Shown here in pieces: positions 1 through 27,633 of a DNA stretch of 27,633 nt. The stretch's first letter is position 1; each line of letters opens with the position of its first letter. Source of the DNA: a candidate division WOR-3 bacterium (lineage in GTDB: Bacteria; Hydrothermota; UBA3072; B12-G15); contig CBFGJG010000026.1 of NCBI GenBank assembly GCA_965649055.1, positions 1 to 27,633 of the forward strand. The letters run 5' to 3'. A program made the translations under genes and the position numbers. Below the pieces are notes generated by a model. That model searched no databases and was not told where the DNA came from. It was given only the letters and a program-made list of their open reading frames with translations.

Positions 1-3000
1 TTTCTTGAAAATGTATATGATGAATAGATAGATGATATAGGTTCACAACCCAATGGTTTGCAACCCTCAACCCATATAAATCTTGTGATAGAATTCTCTC
101 GTGTTGCATAAAGATATTTTACTTCACCATTTTCTGGGTATATATCTTTTATTATTGTATCTTTTCCTATCTTATAAAATCTTAAAAAATCACCCTTTCC
201 ATCCCATATTATATTTGTACTCCCTTTTCCATCATAAACAATTGATGGAGAGAGAAGGGTTGGAACTATTGAATCATAGAATACTAATTTAGGAACTTCA
301 ATTGTCTCCGGTTTTATCTCTATAAAATCTGTGTACAGTAAATCAAAATTAGATGGATTTGAAAGAGGGAATTTACCTACTATTAAAAGTTTACCAAACC
401 ATAATTTTATAATAGGTATATATTCTCCTGGTAGTGTATGATATGTTGGTCCGTATTTTGATTCAAATACAAAATATCCTGTATCAGACTCAGTGAATAA
501 AGATGGTGCACCTATTCCCCAGAAGTATGAACCTATATTTGTATGTGGAACAGCATAATTTGTCCAACCACCTCCTATCATGGATGAATATCTTATTTCT
601 TCAATTGCTGTTGTATCATTATAGGACCATATTGAATATAACTTATTTAAATATAAACATAATGCAGGATTTTTACCAAAACCTAAAAAATATAAAGTTG
701 AATCATTAAGATTATAATTATAAACAGAATCATTCCTTGAAAATACTAAATTCAAATTCCTAAGATTATCTAATGTTAATCTATCAGTATTATTGGGTGG
801 AATATCTTCTTCCTTAAAATTAAACGCAATTGGTTCCGGTGGTACTGTAGATGGATTTGGGATTTTTTCAATCTGGACAGCACATTTTGATGAATTTAAT
901 GTTGAAATAAAACAAACATCTAATGAATCAGAAATTGAAGTTGGGAGAATAAATCCTTGTATAAATTTATTCCCTAATGATGAAACTTTATAAGTATTAT
1001 ATTTTAAAGAATAACTTTCAAGGTTATATATTTGATGAACATATCCTTCACCATTATAATCACAATATATATAAAGACTTGTCCAATGTGAATAAAGATA
1101 AGGATTATCGCCAACTTCCCTATATATCCTCTCTTTCCATTCTGTCCCAGTAAATTCCTTTAATGTGATAGTAGGACCAGGTTTTACAAATGAAAGATAT
1201 AATTTGCTATTATGGGAAATTAAAGATGGATTTGACCCAACATCTGATAATATTCTCCCTTCCCAGTAATTATGTATAAATACTTGTTTGTAGCGGTGGT
1301 AAATTTTATCTTCCCACTGGAAAGCAATATGTGGCCCTGTATAATATGGTGTCCCTGTTGAATGATATACCAAAGATGGTGAAAGAGGGGGAAAAGATGG
1401 AGTCCCCTGTGAAGAATACGACCATACTATTTCGCTGTTTCCGTCAGCGTATATTGGATTATTAAAAACAAACGATGTGAAAAGAAGGGATATTGTATAC
1501 ACACCTCCTTTTTCCTTCCTTTCTCTCTTTTCAATTGCAAGATATACCCTGTTTCCTACCATCTGTATAGAAGGTCTATAATATTTAATATCTTCGTCTG
1601 TTGGGAATAAAATTGTTTCACCTGTTATTGTCTCATCATTTATCCTCACATATCTACATTCTTTATTCCCATCGGCAGTAAATATAACTATAACCTCACC
1701 ATTAGGGCAAAGACCGATTGTTGGTTCTTCGCACGAAGTTTCTTGAGCATCTGAATATGCACATATTTTCCTCCATGACTTCCCTTCATCTGATGATTTA
1801 ATAATGTATATCTTATTTCCTGTTGTATATGCCCCAAATATTTTCCCATCACCTCTTCTTATAAACTTTATTCCATTGTTATAAGCAGTTCCAACATCTG
1901 ATGAACTTGAAAGGAATGGAAAAGTCCCTACTTCTATCTCATTTGAAAAATTGCTGTATATTCTTCCTGATGCTGTTTCTTTATAACCTCTTACTTTAAA
2001 ATAGTAAATATTATATTTTGAAACATTATTGTCAATCCAAATTGTTGTATTTGAACCAGTTTCATATATCTTAACATTATTTCTCCATATCTCATATCCA
2101 TCTTCATAATTTGAATTATCTAACCAGGAGAGAGTGATAGAAGAGCAGGGATATATGAAAGATGCGGAAAGATTTGTAGGGGAGAAGAGAAACATTGGTG
2201 TTGTAAAGATATTACTCTCCACTGAAAAATATCCCCCTCCATTTGTTTTTACTATGTAATTGTAAGTTTTTCCCTCAGAAATATTTTCATCATAAAAGTT
2301 ATTTATATCTCTTTCAGTATTTCCAATTGTTACAGGACTATTATTACCTTCCCATCTTAAAACATTATAACCTATTTCAAAATTAGAATTGTCATTCCAT
2401 AGTAATTTTATTTTTTTACCTTCAATATTTCCGGTTAAATTAGTAGGTGGATTTAATACAACCCTAAATGAATCAATGAATGGAATAAAACTATGATTTT
2501 TTCCAAGATAATCATAATAATTAACGATACCAAAATAAAAATTTCCACCCCTTTGAGGTGATATTGAAATATTAAATACGATGAAATTTCCATTTTTTAT
2601 TTCTGCCTTCAAAAAATCAGAATAAGGGTTATAAAAAGTGCAATATGATGTTGAGAGTGGAGAATAAAGTCCAAAAAATTCTAAACTATAATTTTTAGTT
2701 GTATTTATGTCTTCAATTTCTGGTCTTTGATATATCATCCAATTTTTATAAGAAGATATTTGGGGAGAAGTCCATAATAGTGTTGCAGGGTCTCCAAGAA
2801 GATTATAAGATACATTCATAGATCGAGCATCATTAGAATCAGGGGGTGTTAAATGCATATAATAATCCCATAAAAGTTTTTTCCCGTATTGAATCATTTT
2901 ACCAATACTATAATTCTTATAATCCAGAAAACTTGATACTAATTTTAAAGCAAAAGAATCATTATAAATATCTGCTGTTCCAAACGTAGCACCTAAGAAT

Positions 3001-3870
3001 CCTATTGCACCCCCTCTTTTCTTTTTTAAGAATGTTTCACCTAAACAGTCATTTGGATAATGATAACTACCTGTGAAACAAGTAGTGCTTATAATGAAAA
3101 AAGGTCTGTTATTCGTTGGAAGGTTATTTATTTCCGAATTGCTAATATAACAATTGTCGCAAGGTTGACTATTTAAATCAAAGCTTTTCCAACGATCATA
3201 TAATCCATGACCTCTATACAAGAACATAAATCCACCTTCGCCTATGCTGTTTTAAAATTTCTGGAACATTTGCTGTATGCCAATTTAGTGTATCACAACG
3301 AATATAGCGAAGACTGTGATAAGTTGTATCCGATGTTTTAAATTTATAAAGATAAGTATTTATTGTGTTTTTTCTAATAATCTGTTGGTCATATCTATCT
3401 CCAATTTGACAGGTTGCTACACCTATTATTTTACTTGACCAACCATCAGTTAGTGGAGTAAATTCATAGTTCCATAATTTTTCTATGATGTTATCAAGGG
3501 TATTATATGCATTAAGATGTACAGAAAGCCTTCCAATACTTATATTTGTATCAGGTGCTGAGAATTCATCAGGTAATATATAAAATTGGTCAGAGTATCT
3601 ATACCCTAAAGTTTCACCAGGAATAATTTCAACATCTCCAATCAGTGTAATATAAATTGGTTTTGTCCATTCTGGTATATGATTAAATATATAACCTTTT
3701 ATCTCTTCAGGGGAATTAGAACCAATATCCGATAATTTGATTATCTTGACATCATAACCCTCAATTGTTCTCAGTACTTTCAATTTGTAAGTTCTATCAA
3801 AGTAAGCATCTGGCACAATAAACACTGATGTGCCTCTAAATCCCATAGAAAAAATTAAAAACAATATCAT
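1..3870 (-). pseudogene. Large secreted peptidase C25 (gingipain-like) multidomain protein (C25 domain, 2x fibronectin type III, Asp-box/beta-propeller regions); split by a 1-nt frameshift at 3250-3253; 3' end runs off the window
   Basis: The 5' part (track ORF 3214..3882; likely ATG 3870 after a GGAG SD) has the C25 N-terminal motifs PEEIKGYI, YITLIGDVEIIP, YSDQFY and ISIGRLSV. Removing one A from GAA ATT TTA AAA CAG C gives EILNSIGEGGFMFLYRGHG (catalytic His, 3207-3209), IISTTCFTG (Cys), CLGETFLKKKRGGAIGFLGAT and YNLLGDP. Next come FN3 repeats (PPTNLTG..LLWNDNSNFEIGYNVLR; SPTNLSA..LSWLDNSNYEDGYEIWR) and the Asp-box KSSDEGKSW. The segments I translated have no stop and the track lists no closed minus-strand ORF here, so the frame appears open to position 1. 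The break may be a real lesion or an assembly error. Confidence 0.85.
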
Positions 3871-3872
3871 TT

Positions 3873-4868
3873 TTATCTCCAATTTTCTACATTTATCTTA
3901 ATTATAATATTTGTATCAGGACGACCTATCCAACACCATTTTTCTGTAAAGAATATGCTGCTGGTATATAAGGGCTTATCAATCTCATGTATAGTCCATT
4001 CGGAGCCATTCCAGTGAAGAAGATCCAAAATATTCCCTTCTCCAATATATATCCATCCATTATTTTCAATCAAAAATTGAATACCAATCCCAGTATAATG
4101 GATAAAAAGATACGGTTCCCATTTTCCATTTATATATCTATAAATGTGTCCAGGATATGGATAATTCCCTCTCATCCCAACACCCCATCCTTCATCAGGC
4201 GTTGCAAATGCTATCTCCCAGAGAAATCTTGAATAAAAAAGCCCTATCGTATCACAGGGGATTGTATCAATATCAATTATTCCATTTTTATAATGTATAG
4301 CCACAGGTATTTGAATACACGTATCTCCTACACCATACCCTTCAGAATTTGATATCCAGACCTCGTCTTCCCTTACAGGTTCAATATAATATAGATAGCG
4401 ATATTGTGGTGGAAATACTGCTATTGTATCCCATTCATTATTCTTAAAATGAAGGAGCATATCACAATTTACAATGCACCAACCTTCATCATTATTATAA
4501 AACTTTAATATACAATCCTTGTTGCAACGATATGTCTTTCCCCATAAAGAATTCTGGTATAAATAAATATTTTTGTCATTATCCCAACAATAAAAAAGAC
4601 CAGTTTTAGTATTAATATCTATACCCACTATTGAGATAGAGGTGTCATTGAAAGGCTGGAATATATGCCAGTCAGAACCACCATTATTTGTCCAATAAAC
4701 TTTCTCATTGCATAAAATCCAACCTTCTTCATCATTTAAAAATTTTATTCTTGAAACCTTTTCAGGTGTAGAAATAATCTCTTTTTCATAATAAGGATGG
4801 AATAGTCCTTCTTTTTCTTTATTGCAAGATAAAATAAGCAAGATTAAAAATATTAAAATCCTTTTCAT
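3873..4868 (-). CDS. Lipoprotein with WD40/YVTN/BNR-like (YCF48-related) beta-propeller repeats
   Basis: N-terminus MKRILIFLILLILSC is a lipobox. Repeated F-x3-4-EGW units (FLNDEEGW, FYNNDEGW, FATPDEGW) and a TNNGGSDW Asp-box-like motif. Confidence 0.75.
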   Translation of the reverse strand: MKRILIFLILLILSCNKEKEGLFHPYYEKEIISTPEKVSRIKFLNDEEGWILCNEKVYWTNNGGSDWHIFQPFNDTSISIVGIDINTKTGLFYCWDNDKNIYLYQNSLWGKTYRCNKDCILKFYNNDEGWCIVNCDMLLHFKNNEWDTIAVFPPQYRYLYYIEPVREDEVWISNSEGYGVGDTCIQIPVAIHYKNGIIDIDTIPCDTIGLFYSRFLWEIAFATPDEGWGVGMRGNYPYPGHIYRYINGKWEPYLFIHYTGIGIQFLIENNGWIYIGEGNILDLLHWNGSEWTIHEIDKPLYTSSIFFTEKWCWIGRPDTNIIIKINVENWR

Positions 4869-23543: not shown

Positions 23544-23651
23544 ATGGGTTTAAAAAATCGAATAGTTAGGTTATCCATCAAATATCTTGAGGACAAAATT
23601 TTCTATATGGAATTGCAATATTTAAAAATTTTAACCTTTGAAAGGAGGTGA
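23544..23651 (+). CDS. Small 35-aa hypothetical protein or leader ORF
   Basis: Strong AAGGAGGT SD. Encodes MGLKNRIVRLSIKYLEDKIFYMELQYLKILTFERR. Its last codons form the SD of the next gene. Below the ORF-track size cutoff. Confidence 0.5.
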   Translation: MGLKNRIVRLSIKYLEDKIFYMELQYLKILTFERR

Positions 23652-23652
23652 T

Positions 23653-24789
23653 ATGATAATCCTTTTATTCAGCATATCAGGTCATTGGGAACTTTTACAT
23701 GAGAGTTATTACTGTTCATTCTGGGGAGTTGATTTTGTTGACACATTGAATGGATGGGTATGTGGGGATTTTGGTATGGTATGGAGGACGAGGGATGGAG
23801 GCGAATCATGGGAGACATTGTATGTTACAAGGAATGTGACCTTGAGAGACATCTGTTTTCTTGATACACTTACAGGATGGGTATGTGGAGATTATGGATA
23901 CATAGCAAAGACAACAGATGGTGGATACACATGGGAAGAGCAGAATTCAGGGGTATTGTGGGGACTTAAATCAATAAAGTTTGTTGATGAAAGGCATGGA
24001 TGGTGTGGAATTGATACAGTAGCATGGATTATATTGAAGACCACTGATGGAGGGAGGAATTGGGAAAAAATTAGCGTTCCACCTACTTGGTTCACATGGT
24101 TGAGTAATATTGTTATTTCCCCTGTAAATAAGAATTTAATCTGGCTTTCGATGGAAAGACTTTATGTTTCTTATGATGGTGGATACAACTGGATTGTAAA
24201 AGAAGAAAGCACAACGACATCATGTTTTGCACTTGATTCTCTCCATATTTTTTATTCAACTATTTCCTCCTTTTATAGAAGTTCAGATGGAGGTAATACA
24301 TTTGAAAGTTCCTCGGATTGTTATAGTTTGTATTCCATCTCATTTGTTGATACCCTTTTTGGCTGGGGAGGACGCGGCTTTTCTCTTTATCTTACAGAAG
24401 ATGGTGGTAAAACATTTACGGAATATCTTTCTCCCGGTGATGATTGGGTTTCAGATATAGACTGTGTTGATAGGAATCATTGTTGGGCTTCAAAATGGTA
24501 TCCTCAGGTCCACCAATATGAAAGATGCGGTGAAATAGTAAGATGGGTTTCTGATGCTGTTTCTGTTGTTAAGGAAGAAAAAGAGATTAGGACATTTTTC
24601 CTGAACGGAAAGATTACACTTGAAGAAGGATTTAAGATTTACAACATTTCAGGAGAACTTGTGAAAGAATTAAAGAATGAAATCTGGGATGGAAGAGATG
24701 AGAAAGGTAATGTTGTAAAACAAGGGATTTATTTTGGTTTAAAAAACAACAAAAAAATAAAAATTATAAAATTAGGAGGAAAATTATGA
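23653..24789 (+). CDS. Secreted YCF48/BNR (Asp-box) beta-propeller protein with a C-terminal FlgD-Ig/T9SS-like sorting domain
   Basis: ATG 23653 after AGGAGGTG. Repeats F-x-D-x2-GW...T-x-DGG-x2-W (RTRDGGESW, KTTDGGYTW, KTTDGGRNW). C-terminus KIYNISGELVKEL..WDGRDEKGNVVKQGIYF..KIKIIKL. Confidence 0.85.
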   Translation: MIILLFSISGHWELLHESYYCSFWGVDFVDTLNGWVCGDFGMVWRTRDGGESWETLYVTRNVTLRDICFLDTLTGWVCGDYGYIAKTTDGGYTWEEQNSGVLWGLKSIKFVDERHGWCGIDTVAWIILKTTDGGRNWEKISVPPTWFTWLSNIVISPVNKNLIWLSMERLYVSYDGGYNWIVKEESTTTSCFALDSLHIFYSTISSFYRSSDGGNTFESSSDCYSLYSISFVDTLFGWGGRGFSLYLTEDGGKTFTEYLSPGDDWVSDIDCVDRNHCWASKWYPQVHQYERCGEIVRWVSDAVSVVKEEKEIRTFFLNGKITLEEGFKIYNISGELVKELKNEIWDGRDEKGNVVKQGIYFGLKNNKKIKIIKLGGKL

Positions 24790-27633
24790 AAAAATTATTT
24801 AATTCTATTCTATTCTATTCTATTCTATTCTATTCTATTCTATCTTTACACCTTTAATTGTTTTTCCAAAGCATCTTTATATCATTGTTGATGATTCAAT
24901 TTACAATTACATAGAGCAATCTCTTAATCAGTATATCAGTGATATTTCTTTTGAAGGATATTCATCAACAGTATTCAGAGTTCAAAATGAGACACCAGAA
25001 GAAATAAGGGAATTGTTAAGGAATGGGTATAATAATCACCATATAGAAGGGGCGATACTTATAGGTGATATAACTTCTAAACCATCATATATAGGGACAG
25101 GTTCAGAGGAAGGTGCATATCCCTGTGAGTTATATTATATGGATATAGATGGTGAATGGATTGATACCTTCGAATTTAATTATAAGATTTTAGTTGACCA
25201 TCTTGATGGTTCTGGTGATGTTGCACCTGAGATTTATACTGCAAGGATATTCCCTAAAAGAGGCTCTATTCAGACTGATGCACAACTTATAAATGATTAT
25301 TTTTATAGGGTTCATAATCTGAGAATTGGTAATTTTACAATTGAAAGATATTATAAGGGCTTAGAGTTTCTTGACCTTGCTCATTACAATTTTTTAATTG
25401 ATGCTTATTCACACAGGGATGTTTGGGAGTCTGGAACACCTGATACTGTGATAAAATGGTATTATGTTCAAAAGAGCTGTTCCGTGATATATAAGCAATA
25501 CGAATTTGTAATTCAAGAATCACATGGCGACGTTGATCGTGTAATCTTACATAATAACAATACTGGATTAGACGAAAATGTATTTGGTTCCGACATCACT
25601 AGTCCTTATGCTAATAAAAGTATGTTCTATCTTTTAGCATCCTGTTTTAATGGGAATTTTGCTATGTACGATTGGAGGCTTGAACCTCAAAATGAATGTT
25701 ATATTGCGTCTTATTTTCTTTTCTGCGATAAGACCTTAGGGGTTATTGCTTCATCAAAAGCAATTGCATCCATACCTCAAGCATTATATATAAAATTCTT
25801 AGGTAGAGGGTTTTCTCTTGGAGAAGCAATTTATGAACTTCTTTTTTCTGTGTTGGAAGATGGCGTTAGTGGTATCGGGGCGAAATCAAATTTTTATGGC
25901 TTGATTGTTTTTGGTGACCCAACACTCCATCCATATAATTATATTTACGGAATACAGGAATATTCAGGATTTCCAAAGGATATTGATAATAATACAATTC
26001 TTGTCAATTCAATCAGTTCAGTTGATTTCAACTCTGGTTCTTACTTTATTGATATTGACCTTGATGGAATGGATGAATTCCTTTTCTGGAGTAATTCTGG
26101 TCTATCCTGCTATAAATTAGATGGAACATTAAAATGGAATTTTCCAATACAGAATACAAAGATCTTAAAACCTGCAGTTGAGGATATTGATGATGATGGA
26201 AGAATAGAGATAATTTTTGTTGCAGAAATAGGATTGGAAGAAGGGGAACTTTTCTGTCTTGATGAAAATGGGAATATTAAATTCAAAGCACCAATAAATT
26301 CACCTAATTCTTCACCTATTATCTTTGATTTTGATAATGACTATAAAAAGGAGATAGTTGTTTCAGCTAATTATTTTTCTTATGACACAATGAAAACTTG
26401 GGCTTCAGAAGAACGATTAAAAGTCTTTAATTGTAATGGTTCTTTAATCTGGGAATATGATGAGACGAGTGTTGATTTCCCAACAATTGGTGATCTTAAT
26501 GGTGATGGGAATTATGAAATAGTATTTTATGGAACTTCTTCTTCTGGACCAGAATATGGGACTAAAAAGATTCTTGTTTACACCTATTCAAATGGGAGTT
26601 TTTCAAAATTGTGGGAGAAAAATTCCCCTTATGTTTTATCTTTATCTCTTGGAAATGCAAGGAATCTTGGGAGGGATGATATAATTTTAGGAACTACTGA
26701 TAAATTATATCTTCTTGATGGAATGCAGGGGGATATTGTTAGTTTCTATGATTCTGTTTCAGCCAATGCACCAATACTTTCAAATATTGATGATGACCCA
26801 TATCTTGAACCTATGTCAATAACAAAGGATGGATATTTTAAGATATTACCTGATTTTGTTACAGGTTCTGGAATAACACTTAATAGGTTCCTACCGCTTG
26901 ATGGAGTAGCAAATCCTACAATAGCAGATATAACAGGTGATAATATTCCTGATATTATACTTCCAACATATAGGGGATTGTTTATTCTCAATCTTGATGG
27001 GACATCAATACTTTCGGGTGGTGAATATTTTGGTAGAGGAACAGATGGTGGGATATTAACAGATGCTGATAATGATGGTGATTATGAATTTGGATTTGGT
27101 GATTATTTTGGGACTGTTCATCTTTACCCATTTAATAAAACCATATCAAGATATTCCTGGCTTGAAGATAATTCAGATAGATGGAATACAAATAATACAA
27201 CCGACAGGGTTCCACCTTTACCTCCTTCAAATTTACAAGCAAGACCAATAAGGATTGATTCAGTTAATTGGAGGGTTAATCTTACCTGGAGAAGAAACAA
27301 TAAGGAGATTGATTTCTCACATTATAATATTTATGGAAATTCTGCATTTATTGATACCACTTATGTGAATTCTTATGATACAGATTTACCTTATGCCCCA
27401 AGAAACTTGTTTTACTTCTATACAAGAGGAGTTGATAATAATGATAATATCTCTTCCCGTTCAAATATTGTGAATCTTCATCATCCAATTGGTTCATCAG
27501 ATATTTCTTATGCAACAGGGACAAATAATCAGAGGAAGATTGGTTATTACGAGGAGAATGTTTATCTTGTTTATCAGGCAGATAATAAGATTTATCTTTT
27601 AAGTTCCAATGATAATGGTGAATCATGGGAGAT
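24786..27633 (+). CDS. Large secreted peptidase C25-like protein (C25 domain, FG-GAP repeats, FN3, Asp-box propeller); out of frame at an (ATTCT)8 tract, putatively phase-variable; 3' end runs off the window
   Basis: ATG 24786 follows an AGGAGG SD and overlaps the upstream stop (ATGA); this frame hits TAA at 24855. The long frame reads KHLYIIVDDSIY..TPEEIRELL..GAILIGD..YPCELYYMDIDGEW..PEIYTARI..ESHG (His 25523)..LLASCFNGNF (Cys 25643)..YGLIVFGDPTL. Then come FG-GAP repeats (EDIDDDGRIEIIF, GDLNGDGNYEIVF, ADITGDNIPDIIL), FN3 (PPLPPSNLQA..VNLTW..HYNIY) and SSNDNGESW. Confidence 0.85.
24802..24841 (+). repeat. Pentanucleotide simple sequence repeat (ATTCT)8
   Basis: Eight perfect ATTCT copies (plus AT), starting 16 nt after the A of ATG 24786. 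Confidence 0.97.

Follow-up and report, generated by a model that had tools for sequence, protein, structure and literature searches.

Whether a perfect pentanucleotide repeat at the head of a putative secreted-protease gene marks a translational ON/OFF switch, or a gene that is broken or misassembled, is the question raised by a locus from an uncultured WOR-3-like bacterium. The stretch of DNA analyzed here (the window) is the entire contig C26, 27,633 bp, of the metagenome-assembled genome (MAG) G000, which comprises 85 contigs and 2.08 Mb, with a G+C content of 31.6% and a completeness of 93.8%. An earlier note on this DNA had described an (ATTCT)8 tract in the leader of a long reading frame and had read it as a contingency locus caught in the OFF state. 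The anatomy of the locus, together with a genome-wide set of tracts in leader-coding regions, supports that reading: the C26 tract is probably a slipped-strand translational ON/OFF contingency locus of the type found in the opa genes of Neisseria, and one of a small set. The features of the locus are as follows.

23638 to 24789, plus strand: upstream open reading frame (ORF) of 383 amino acids (aa), a BNR/Ycf48-like beta-propeller (ORF and profile search)
24773 to 24778, plus strand: ribosome-binding site AGGAGG, 7 nucleotides (nt) before the ATG (read directly in the sequence)
24786 to 24788, plus strand: leader start codon ATG (MKKLFN...; translation)
24800 to 24802, plus strand: TAA closing the long frame upstream (frame reading)
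24802 to 24843, plus strand: perfect (ATTCT)8.4 tract encoding S-I-L-F-Y as a cyclic pentapeptide, which forms the leader's hydrophobic core (Tandem Repeats Finder, or TRF, and translation)
24803 to 27631, plus strand: long open frame of 943 codons, stop-free and running off the contig end; body of the predicted secreted protein
24845 to 26101, plus strand: gingipain-like (C25) domain, with an invariant His at 25523-25525 and an invariant Cys at 25643-25645 (profile, alignment, and model)
24855 to 24857, plus strand: TAA at which the OFF allele, with 8 copies, ends its 23-codon product (translation)
26051 to 26215, plus strand: best FG-GAP-like repeat match (Pfam), with the beta-propeller region going on downstream

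The tract was reported by TRF with a period of 5, 8.4 copies, and 100% matches (24802-24843), and it begins 16 nt past ATG 24786. In the 8-copy allele, the frame opened by this ATG encodes MKKLFNSILFYSILFYSILSLHL and then ends at TAA 24855-24857, and the long frame is closed on its upstream side by TAA 24800-24802; the tract, the short product, and the closure had all been described in the earlier note, and all were confirmed on the sequence. Start codons inside the long frame are TTG 25013, ATG 25139, GTG 25448, and GTG 25484, with no ATG, GTG, or TTG before 25013; position 25139 is indeed that of the first ATG, as had been claimed, but the in-frame TTG comes earlier. Scripted frame arithmetic bore out the proposal that loss of one unit or gain of two fuses the frames: the long frame joins ATG 24786 at 7 or 10 copies (ON), and both OFF registers run into stops, 3 and 15 codons past the tract. 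A change in the number of units is thereby predicted to toggle between a full-length and a truncated product. The repeat does encode SILFY in every frame, as had been stated, yet this is nothing special to this unit, because 5 and 3 are coprime and any pentamer therefore yields the same pentapeptide in every frame. In addition, ATG 24786 overlaps TGA 24787-24789 of the upstream ORF (ATGA), and because of this stop/start overlap the switch gene and the upstream ORF are probably cotranscribed.

A frame interrupted in this way might still be read through by recoding, with the 8-unit allele being expressed by programmed ribosomal frameshifting or by transcriptional slippage on the repeat. Such a repeat is slippery in principle only; neither a homopolymer run nor a stimulatory structure nor any of the known slippery heptamers was noticed at the locus, where no structure search was aimed at the sequence downstream of the tract, and slippage of RNA polymerase is known on homopolymers but is not known on 5-nt units, which counts against recoding. 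We therefore regard this explanation as highly improbable.

The protein that the proposed switch would control was examined by profile, structure, and homology searches. When the whole 943-aa frame was compared with Pfam, only FG-GAP repeats were returned and C25 was missed; the N-terminal 419 aa, searched alone, matched PF01364 (Peptidase_C25) with 27.3 bits (cutoff, 23; E = 2.7e-6) over profile positions 3 to 130 of 374. An NCBIfam search of the protein gave no meaningful match, and a PDB sequence search gave 0 matches. A protein database search returned 21 relatives at an E value of ≤0.001, the best of which, P0002 (1,040 aa), was 39% identical; P0002 and P0003 (1,333 aa) bear precomputed C25, FG-GAP, and Por_Secre_tail (PF18962) domains. 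Across an alignment of 18 sequences, His227 (QESHGD) and Cys267 (LASCFNG) are invariant, and by their order and motifs they would correspond to the gingipain dyad. An AlphaFold2 model of the domain had a mean predicted local distance difference test score of 72.9 and a predicted template modeling (TM) score of 0.80, and the top five Foldseek matches of this model were chains of Kgp and RgpB (E values of 3.3e-12 to 1.2e-9; TM scores of 0.56 to 0.59), with CHAT proteases next. The Pfam match, the modeled gingipain fold, and the invariant His and Cys support the assignment of the N-terminal domain as a putative gingipain-like C25 peptidase, in agreement with the protease call of the earlier note. 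Two of its other labels are not supported: "giant," the visible length being at least 943 aa and the nearest relatives having 1,040 and 1,333 aa, and "adhesin." The missing 3' end was sought by a contig-end overlap search, which gave no overlapping contig.

In fold (for which the Foldseek matches to them have E values of 3e-12 to 6e-11 and TM scores of 0.57 to 0.59), in its Pfam C25 match, and in the conserved His/Cys pair, the domain resembles the gingipains Kgp and RgpB of Porphyromonas gingivalis, which are C25 peptidases and cargo of the type IX secretion system (T9SS); the nearest homolog, P0002, likewise has a T9SS sorting domain. Unlike the gingipains, with which it shares 13 to 14% identity, the predicted protein has its mature domain directly after the leader, with no long prodomain, and an FG-GAP propeller then follows. 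At the homologous loci of relatives, 10 of the 10 examined had a short hydrophobic leader as judged by eye, a count that omits L014, which starts at a contig end, and L006, which is the window itself. Since the homologs have leaders, a leader is expected here as well, and the one candidate for it is the frame that runs from ATG 24786 across the tract.

The earlier note had also proposed a scan of the genome for further pentamer repeats in signal peptides, and three more such loci were identified. A perfect-repeat scan over all 85 contigs of G000, with which whole-genome TRF agrees, found four pentamer tracts of at least 4 copies, each having at least 7; at the eight remaining pentamer loci, the number of copies is 3. 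In third-order Markov genomes of the same size, there were 5 to 11 loci with at least 3 copies, and a tract of at least 4 copies was present in 0 of 10 genomes. The 3-copy class in G000 thus matches the chance level of the simulated genomes. The four long tracts are listed below.

C26:24802, (ATTCT)8: OFF
C72:260, (ATCTT)10: OFF; ON at 9 or 12 units
C72:6886, (ATCTT)8: OFF; ON at 6 or 9 units
C81:4323-4357, minus strand, 35 nt of ATTCT (about 7 units): in frame

All four tracts start 11 to 23 nt after the sequence ATG AAA AAR TT, with a GGAGG-type ribosome site upstream, and all four have the coding-strand orientation in which the unit is stop-free; for both units, a TAG is present on the opposite strand. 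Three of the four tracts are out of frame, and the OFF registers stop within 3 to 15 codons. The tracts lie in leader-coding regions, and all four genes are of the secretion-cargo type, being either C25-type or Metallophos with a T9SS sorting domain. The genes on C72 and C81 are paralogs of one another (30% identity over 1,346 alignment columns); their products are predicted to combine a calcineurin-like phosphoesterase (Metallophos) with a T9SS Por_Secre_tail, and a gene for a small membrane protein precedes each of them. The two C72 genes, C72a (C72:237-4159) and C72b (C72:6863-6976; both in L036), stand in tandem and are paralogs of a 1,300-aa protein of this kind; the body of C72a is open for 1,282 codons after the tract. 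Nine units would bring either gene into frame, and 48 nt past the C72b tract the contig comes to its end. Furthermore, a perfect (CTAT)5 repeat (C18:36523-36544, minus strand) is present in the leader of a remnant, 61 codons long, from the C72/C81 metallophosphoesterase family, behind a similar small-membrane-protein gene, implying that the same leader position of this family carries different units. Two imperfect TRF arrays, C10:24677 and C5:17150, were considered as leader repeats and were rejected as ordinary low-complexity sequence.

Comparisons within and between genomes addressed tract length and the distribution of the repeats. C72a and C72b are identical over the 74 nt upstream and have 2 mismatches in the 48 nt downstream, and the difference between their tracts is exactly two units. 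The genome G001 belongs to the same family; its ortholog of the C81 gene shares the upstream membrane-protein gene and the mature N terminus NVKVKYPF, and the leader of this ortholog, MKKINFLCFFLPFISFA, is an ordinary signal peptide without a repeat. Among the 272 genomes of the phylum, (ATTCT)5 occurs in 1, namely, G000. The C72a/C72b pair is indirect evidence that tracts of this kind change in length, and the repeat-free G001 leader and the occurrence of (ATTCT)5 in G000 alone point to a lineage-specific device.

The sequence itself shows that translation starts at ATG 24786, behind a strong ribosome site, and that the tract supplies the leader's hydrophobic core. In the 8-unit allele, the ribosome stops 4 codons past the tract, so that the product is a peptide of 23 residues and no enzyme is exported; fusion of the leader to a 929-codon body, consisting of the putative C25 peptidase and the FG-GAP propeller, takes place only at 7, 10, or other lengths congruent with 7. 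In the mechanism that we propose, slippage during replication would add and remove 5-nt units at high frequency and presumably in a reversible manner, such that the population would always contain a mixture of ON and OFF cells, and the assembled allele may represent an OFF majority. Any benefit might lie in bet-hedging, either on secreted and surface proteins that carry a cost or are exposed, with phages exploiting them as one example of a threat, or on extracellular enzymes that are shared. A wider reading is that the free-living bacterium of G000 possesses an opa-like "phasome" acting on T9SS cargo, in which leaders made of hypermutable 4- to 5-nt repeats, having arisen more than once (ATTCT, ATCTT, and the CTAT remnant), would independently switch a gingipain-like peptidase and secreted metallophosphoesterases; for this wider reading, we judge the case for and the case against to be evenly balanced.

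Several observations weigh against a contingency locus at C26. No Ala-X-Ala cleavage site is obvious in the ON-form leader. Nor do the four tracts amount to four independent events, with three sitting in paralogs, and the C81 gene (C81:477-4367, minus strand; L037) contains an in-frame TGA at codon 758 that separates the Metallophos half from the T9SS-sorting half. A second, canonical Peptidase_C25 gene in the window (3-3882, minus strand) is split into the ORFs 3214-3882 and 3-3227. No close relatives of the C26 protein were found in a protein-based scan of metagenome contigs, and the best match to it in the genomes of 40 relatives had 33% identity. The copy number, moreover, rests on one short-read-type assembly and may be miscounted. 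The window DNA was found in one metagenome run, X1 (hot springs metagenome; share, 0.16), as a weak match, and the read-based look covered contigs from X1 and from two runs of the same study, which are short and have depths of 2 to 7; four X1 pieces are identical to the window outside the repeat, none of the run contigs spans 24791-24851, and no length variant of the tract came to light.

If the count were wrong, the tract would truly have 7 (or 10) units, and the gene would simply be ON, the 42-nt repeat having been mis-sized in assembly. Repeat copy numbers are error-prone in short-read metagenome assemblies, and the end of contig C72, 48 nt after a tract, shows assembly trouble at that site; yet the 42-nt tract is shorter than the usual read length, and the error would have to have struck three of the four tracts and put every one of these into an OFF register. 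Even then, seven perfect units in a leader would still make a slippage-prone switch. A miscount thus appears quite unlikely.

The split of the second C25 gene bears on a different explanation. Its frameshift lies near 3214-3245, just before the YRGHG motif, with no repeat at the break, and the gene is either a pseudogene or the product of a consensus error. Because neither this split nor the TGA of the C81 gene has a repeat as its cause, ordinary decay or consensus errors do occur in G000. The C26 gene could accordingly be a plain pseudogene, in which a chance expansion and a single slip left a dead gene awaiting decay, with no adaptive switching. In its favor, the two genes just named, both for secreted proteins, are broken with no repeat involved, three of the four repeat genes are OFF, and with at least 14 C25-type genes in the genome one loss would be affordable. 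This explanation must nevertheless accommodate a body that appears not to have decayed, since its 943 codons are stop-free in a genome of 31.6% G+C, and the C72a body is open as well. The sole lesion sits in the hypermutable tract itself, and every tract is perfect (100% matches), whereas abandoned tracts gather interruptions; in addition, the recurrence of repeats at one position with different units (ATTCT, ATCTT, and the CTAT remnant) argues for selection of the device. We consider a plain pseudogene unlikely and prefer the contingency locus as the explanation of the C26 tract.

The precedent named for this arrangement, the opa system of Neisseria, was borne out by the literature. According to the available part of PMC6803597, CTCTT units are gained and lost in the leader-peptide coding region of opa genes at about 10^-3 per generation. 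The C26 tract shares with that system, as the same excerpt describes it, a pentamer that lies in the signal-peptide coding region and encodes the hydrophobic core, and a unit number that moves the gene into and out of frame, opa genes being constitutively transcribed (PMC6803597). There are also several loci per genome in both cases, and the opa loci switch independently, again as given in that part of the source (PMC6803597). The systems differ in that the unit here is ATTCT or ATCTT, not CTCTT, in a sequence that is unrelated; in that the organism is WOR-3-like, uncultured, and from a hot spring, and no pathogen adapted to a host; and in that the genes affected encode a C25-type peptidase and metallophosphoesterases with T9SS tags in place of beta-barrel adhesins, while switching here is a prediction from the sequence. 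A second comparison is offered by the Hop-family outer membrane genes of Helicobacter pylori, in which CT dinucleotide repeats in the 5' signal region turn the translation of surface proteins ON and OFF. Both systems have 5' repeats that code for part of the leader; in H. pylori, the unit is a dinucleotide and the bacterium is host adapted.

Literature searches gave no counterpart for the present combination. Among titles and the opening lines of abstracts on phase variation and type IX secretion, there was no sign of repeat-switched gingipains or T9SS cargo; among the records listed, there was none on WOR-3 with gingipain and none of relevance on slipped-strand mispairing in hot springs. At the level of titles, work on simple sequence repeats and phase variation in MAGs concerned only methyltransferases. 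In its available portion, a review of phase variation from 2025 is concerned with bacteria associated with hosts (PMC11868660), and the corresponding portion of a survey of type I restriction-modification systems reports repeat-bearing genes predicted in environmental bacteria, where the tetra- and pentanucleotide tracts number just three units (PMC7383803).

Searches for further alleles were extended to sequence collections. An exact-sequence cluster look-up with six candidate products found two of them present, neither with informative variants. A pattern scan for MKKL followed by (ATYYT)5 gave one stretch in genome_contigs, from Streptococcus orisratti, and six stretches in metagenome_contigs, comprising five degenerate nonrepeats and one (ATTCT)10 with no following ORF; neither scan returned anything from the WOR-3-like lineage. 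The streptococcal stretch, the only match of the start-plus-pentamer pattern in genome_contigs, is from S. orisratti DSM 15617 (NZ_KB904485.1:931-2176, minus strand; L038) and has (ATCTT)7 in a leader at positions 601 to 646. Inspection of the translation by eye suggests that the gene is D-alanyl-D-alanine carboxypeptidase-like, and in the assembly its ATG does not share its frame.

Other short repeats were encountered in the same phylum. Five loci of family f36 (L024 to L028, in genomes G144, G145, G147, G149, and G153) have (TCTTA)6-7 directly after a conserved promoter-like sequence, CCTTGAC...TATAAT. In four of the five, the repeat is preceded by the ATG of a short frame, MSYLILSYLIL..., which G149 lacks. 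No long ORF follows in the loci shown; hairpin-forming sequence does, and the context differs from that of the signal-peptide tracts. By count only, G151 and G154 also hold a (TCTTA) repeat. Within G000 itself, perfect (GA)8-9 tracts, or (CT)8-9 on the other strand, are present at C33:21820-21838, C20:2534-2550, and C32:6847-6863. They sit in three near-identical noncoding elements in which a TTGACA-type promoter-like site adjoins a palindromic repeat. These elements resemble CRISPR leaders, and a variable dinucleotide tract could tune leader function there.

The host lineage is consistent with the suggestion that the locus belongs to a probably nonpathogenic organism: the best named relative of the RecJ encoded in the window is from "candidate division WOR-3 bacterium" (72% identity), and an uncultured hot-spring bacterium of this kind fits that claim. 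Genome-wide, G000 has 52 matches to the T9SS sorting domain PF18962, of which 38 are over the cutoff, and 15 Peptidase_C25 matches in 14 genes. By these counts, the secretome is very rich for a genome of 2.08 Mb. G000 also encodes MutS, and its SprA-like match is weak.

For pathogens and commensals adapted to a host, contingency loci driven by repeats are textbook knowledge. What sets the present case apart is that a thermophilic candidate-phylum bacterium has several genes for secreted hydrolases with long, perfect tracts in their leaders, most of these genes being OFF as assembled. Should the tracts vary within the population, stochastic switching would shape the set of extracellular enzymes that a hot-spring population deploys. 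Some of the frameshifted "pseudogenes" in MAG annotations would then be switches, and automatic annotation would undercount functional secreted proteins. Given such variation, the spectra of tract lengths in metagenome reads would also provide a simple readout of phage or public-goods pressures in an uncultured lineage. Finally, if the phasome reading is true, then the stochastic ON/OFF expression of extracellular enzymes would be a case of bet-hedging outside host-associated bacteria, serving either the avoidance of phages that use the proteins as receptors or the management of shared enzymes.

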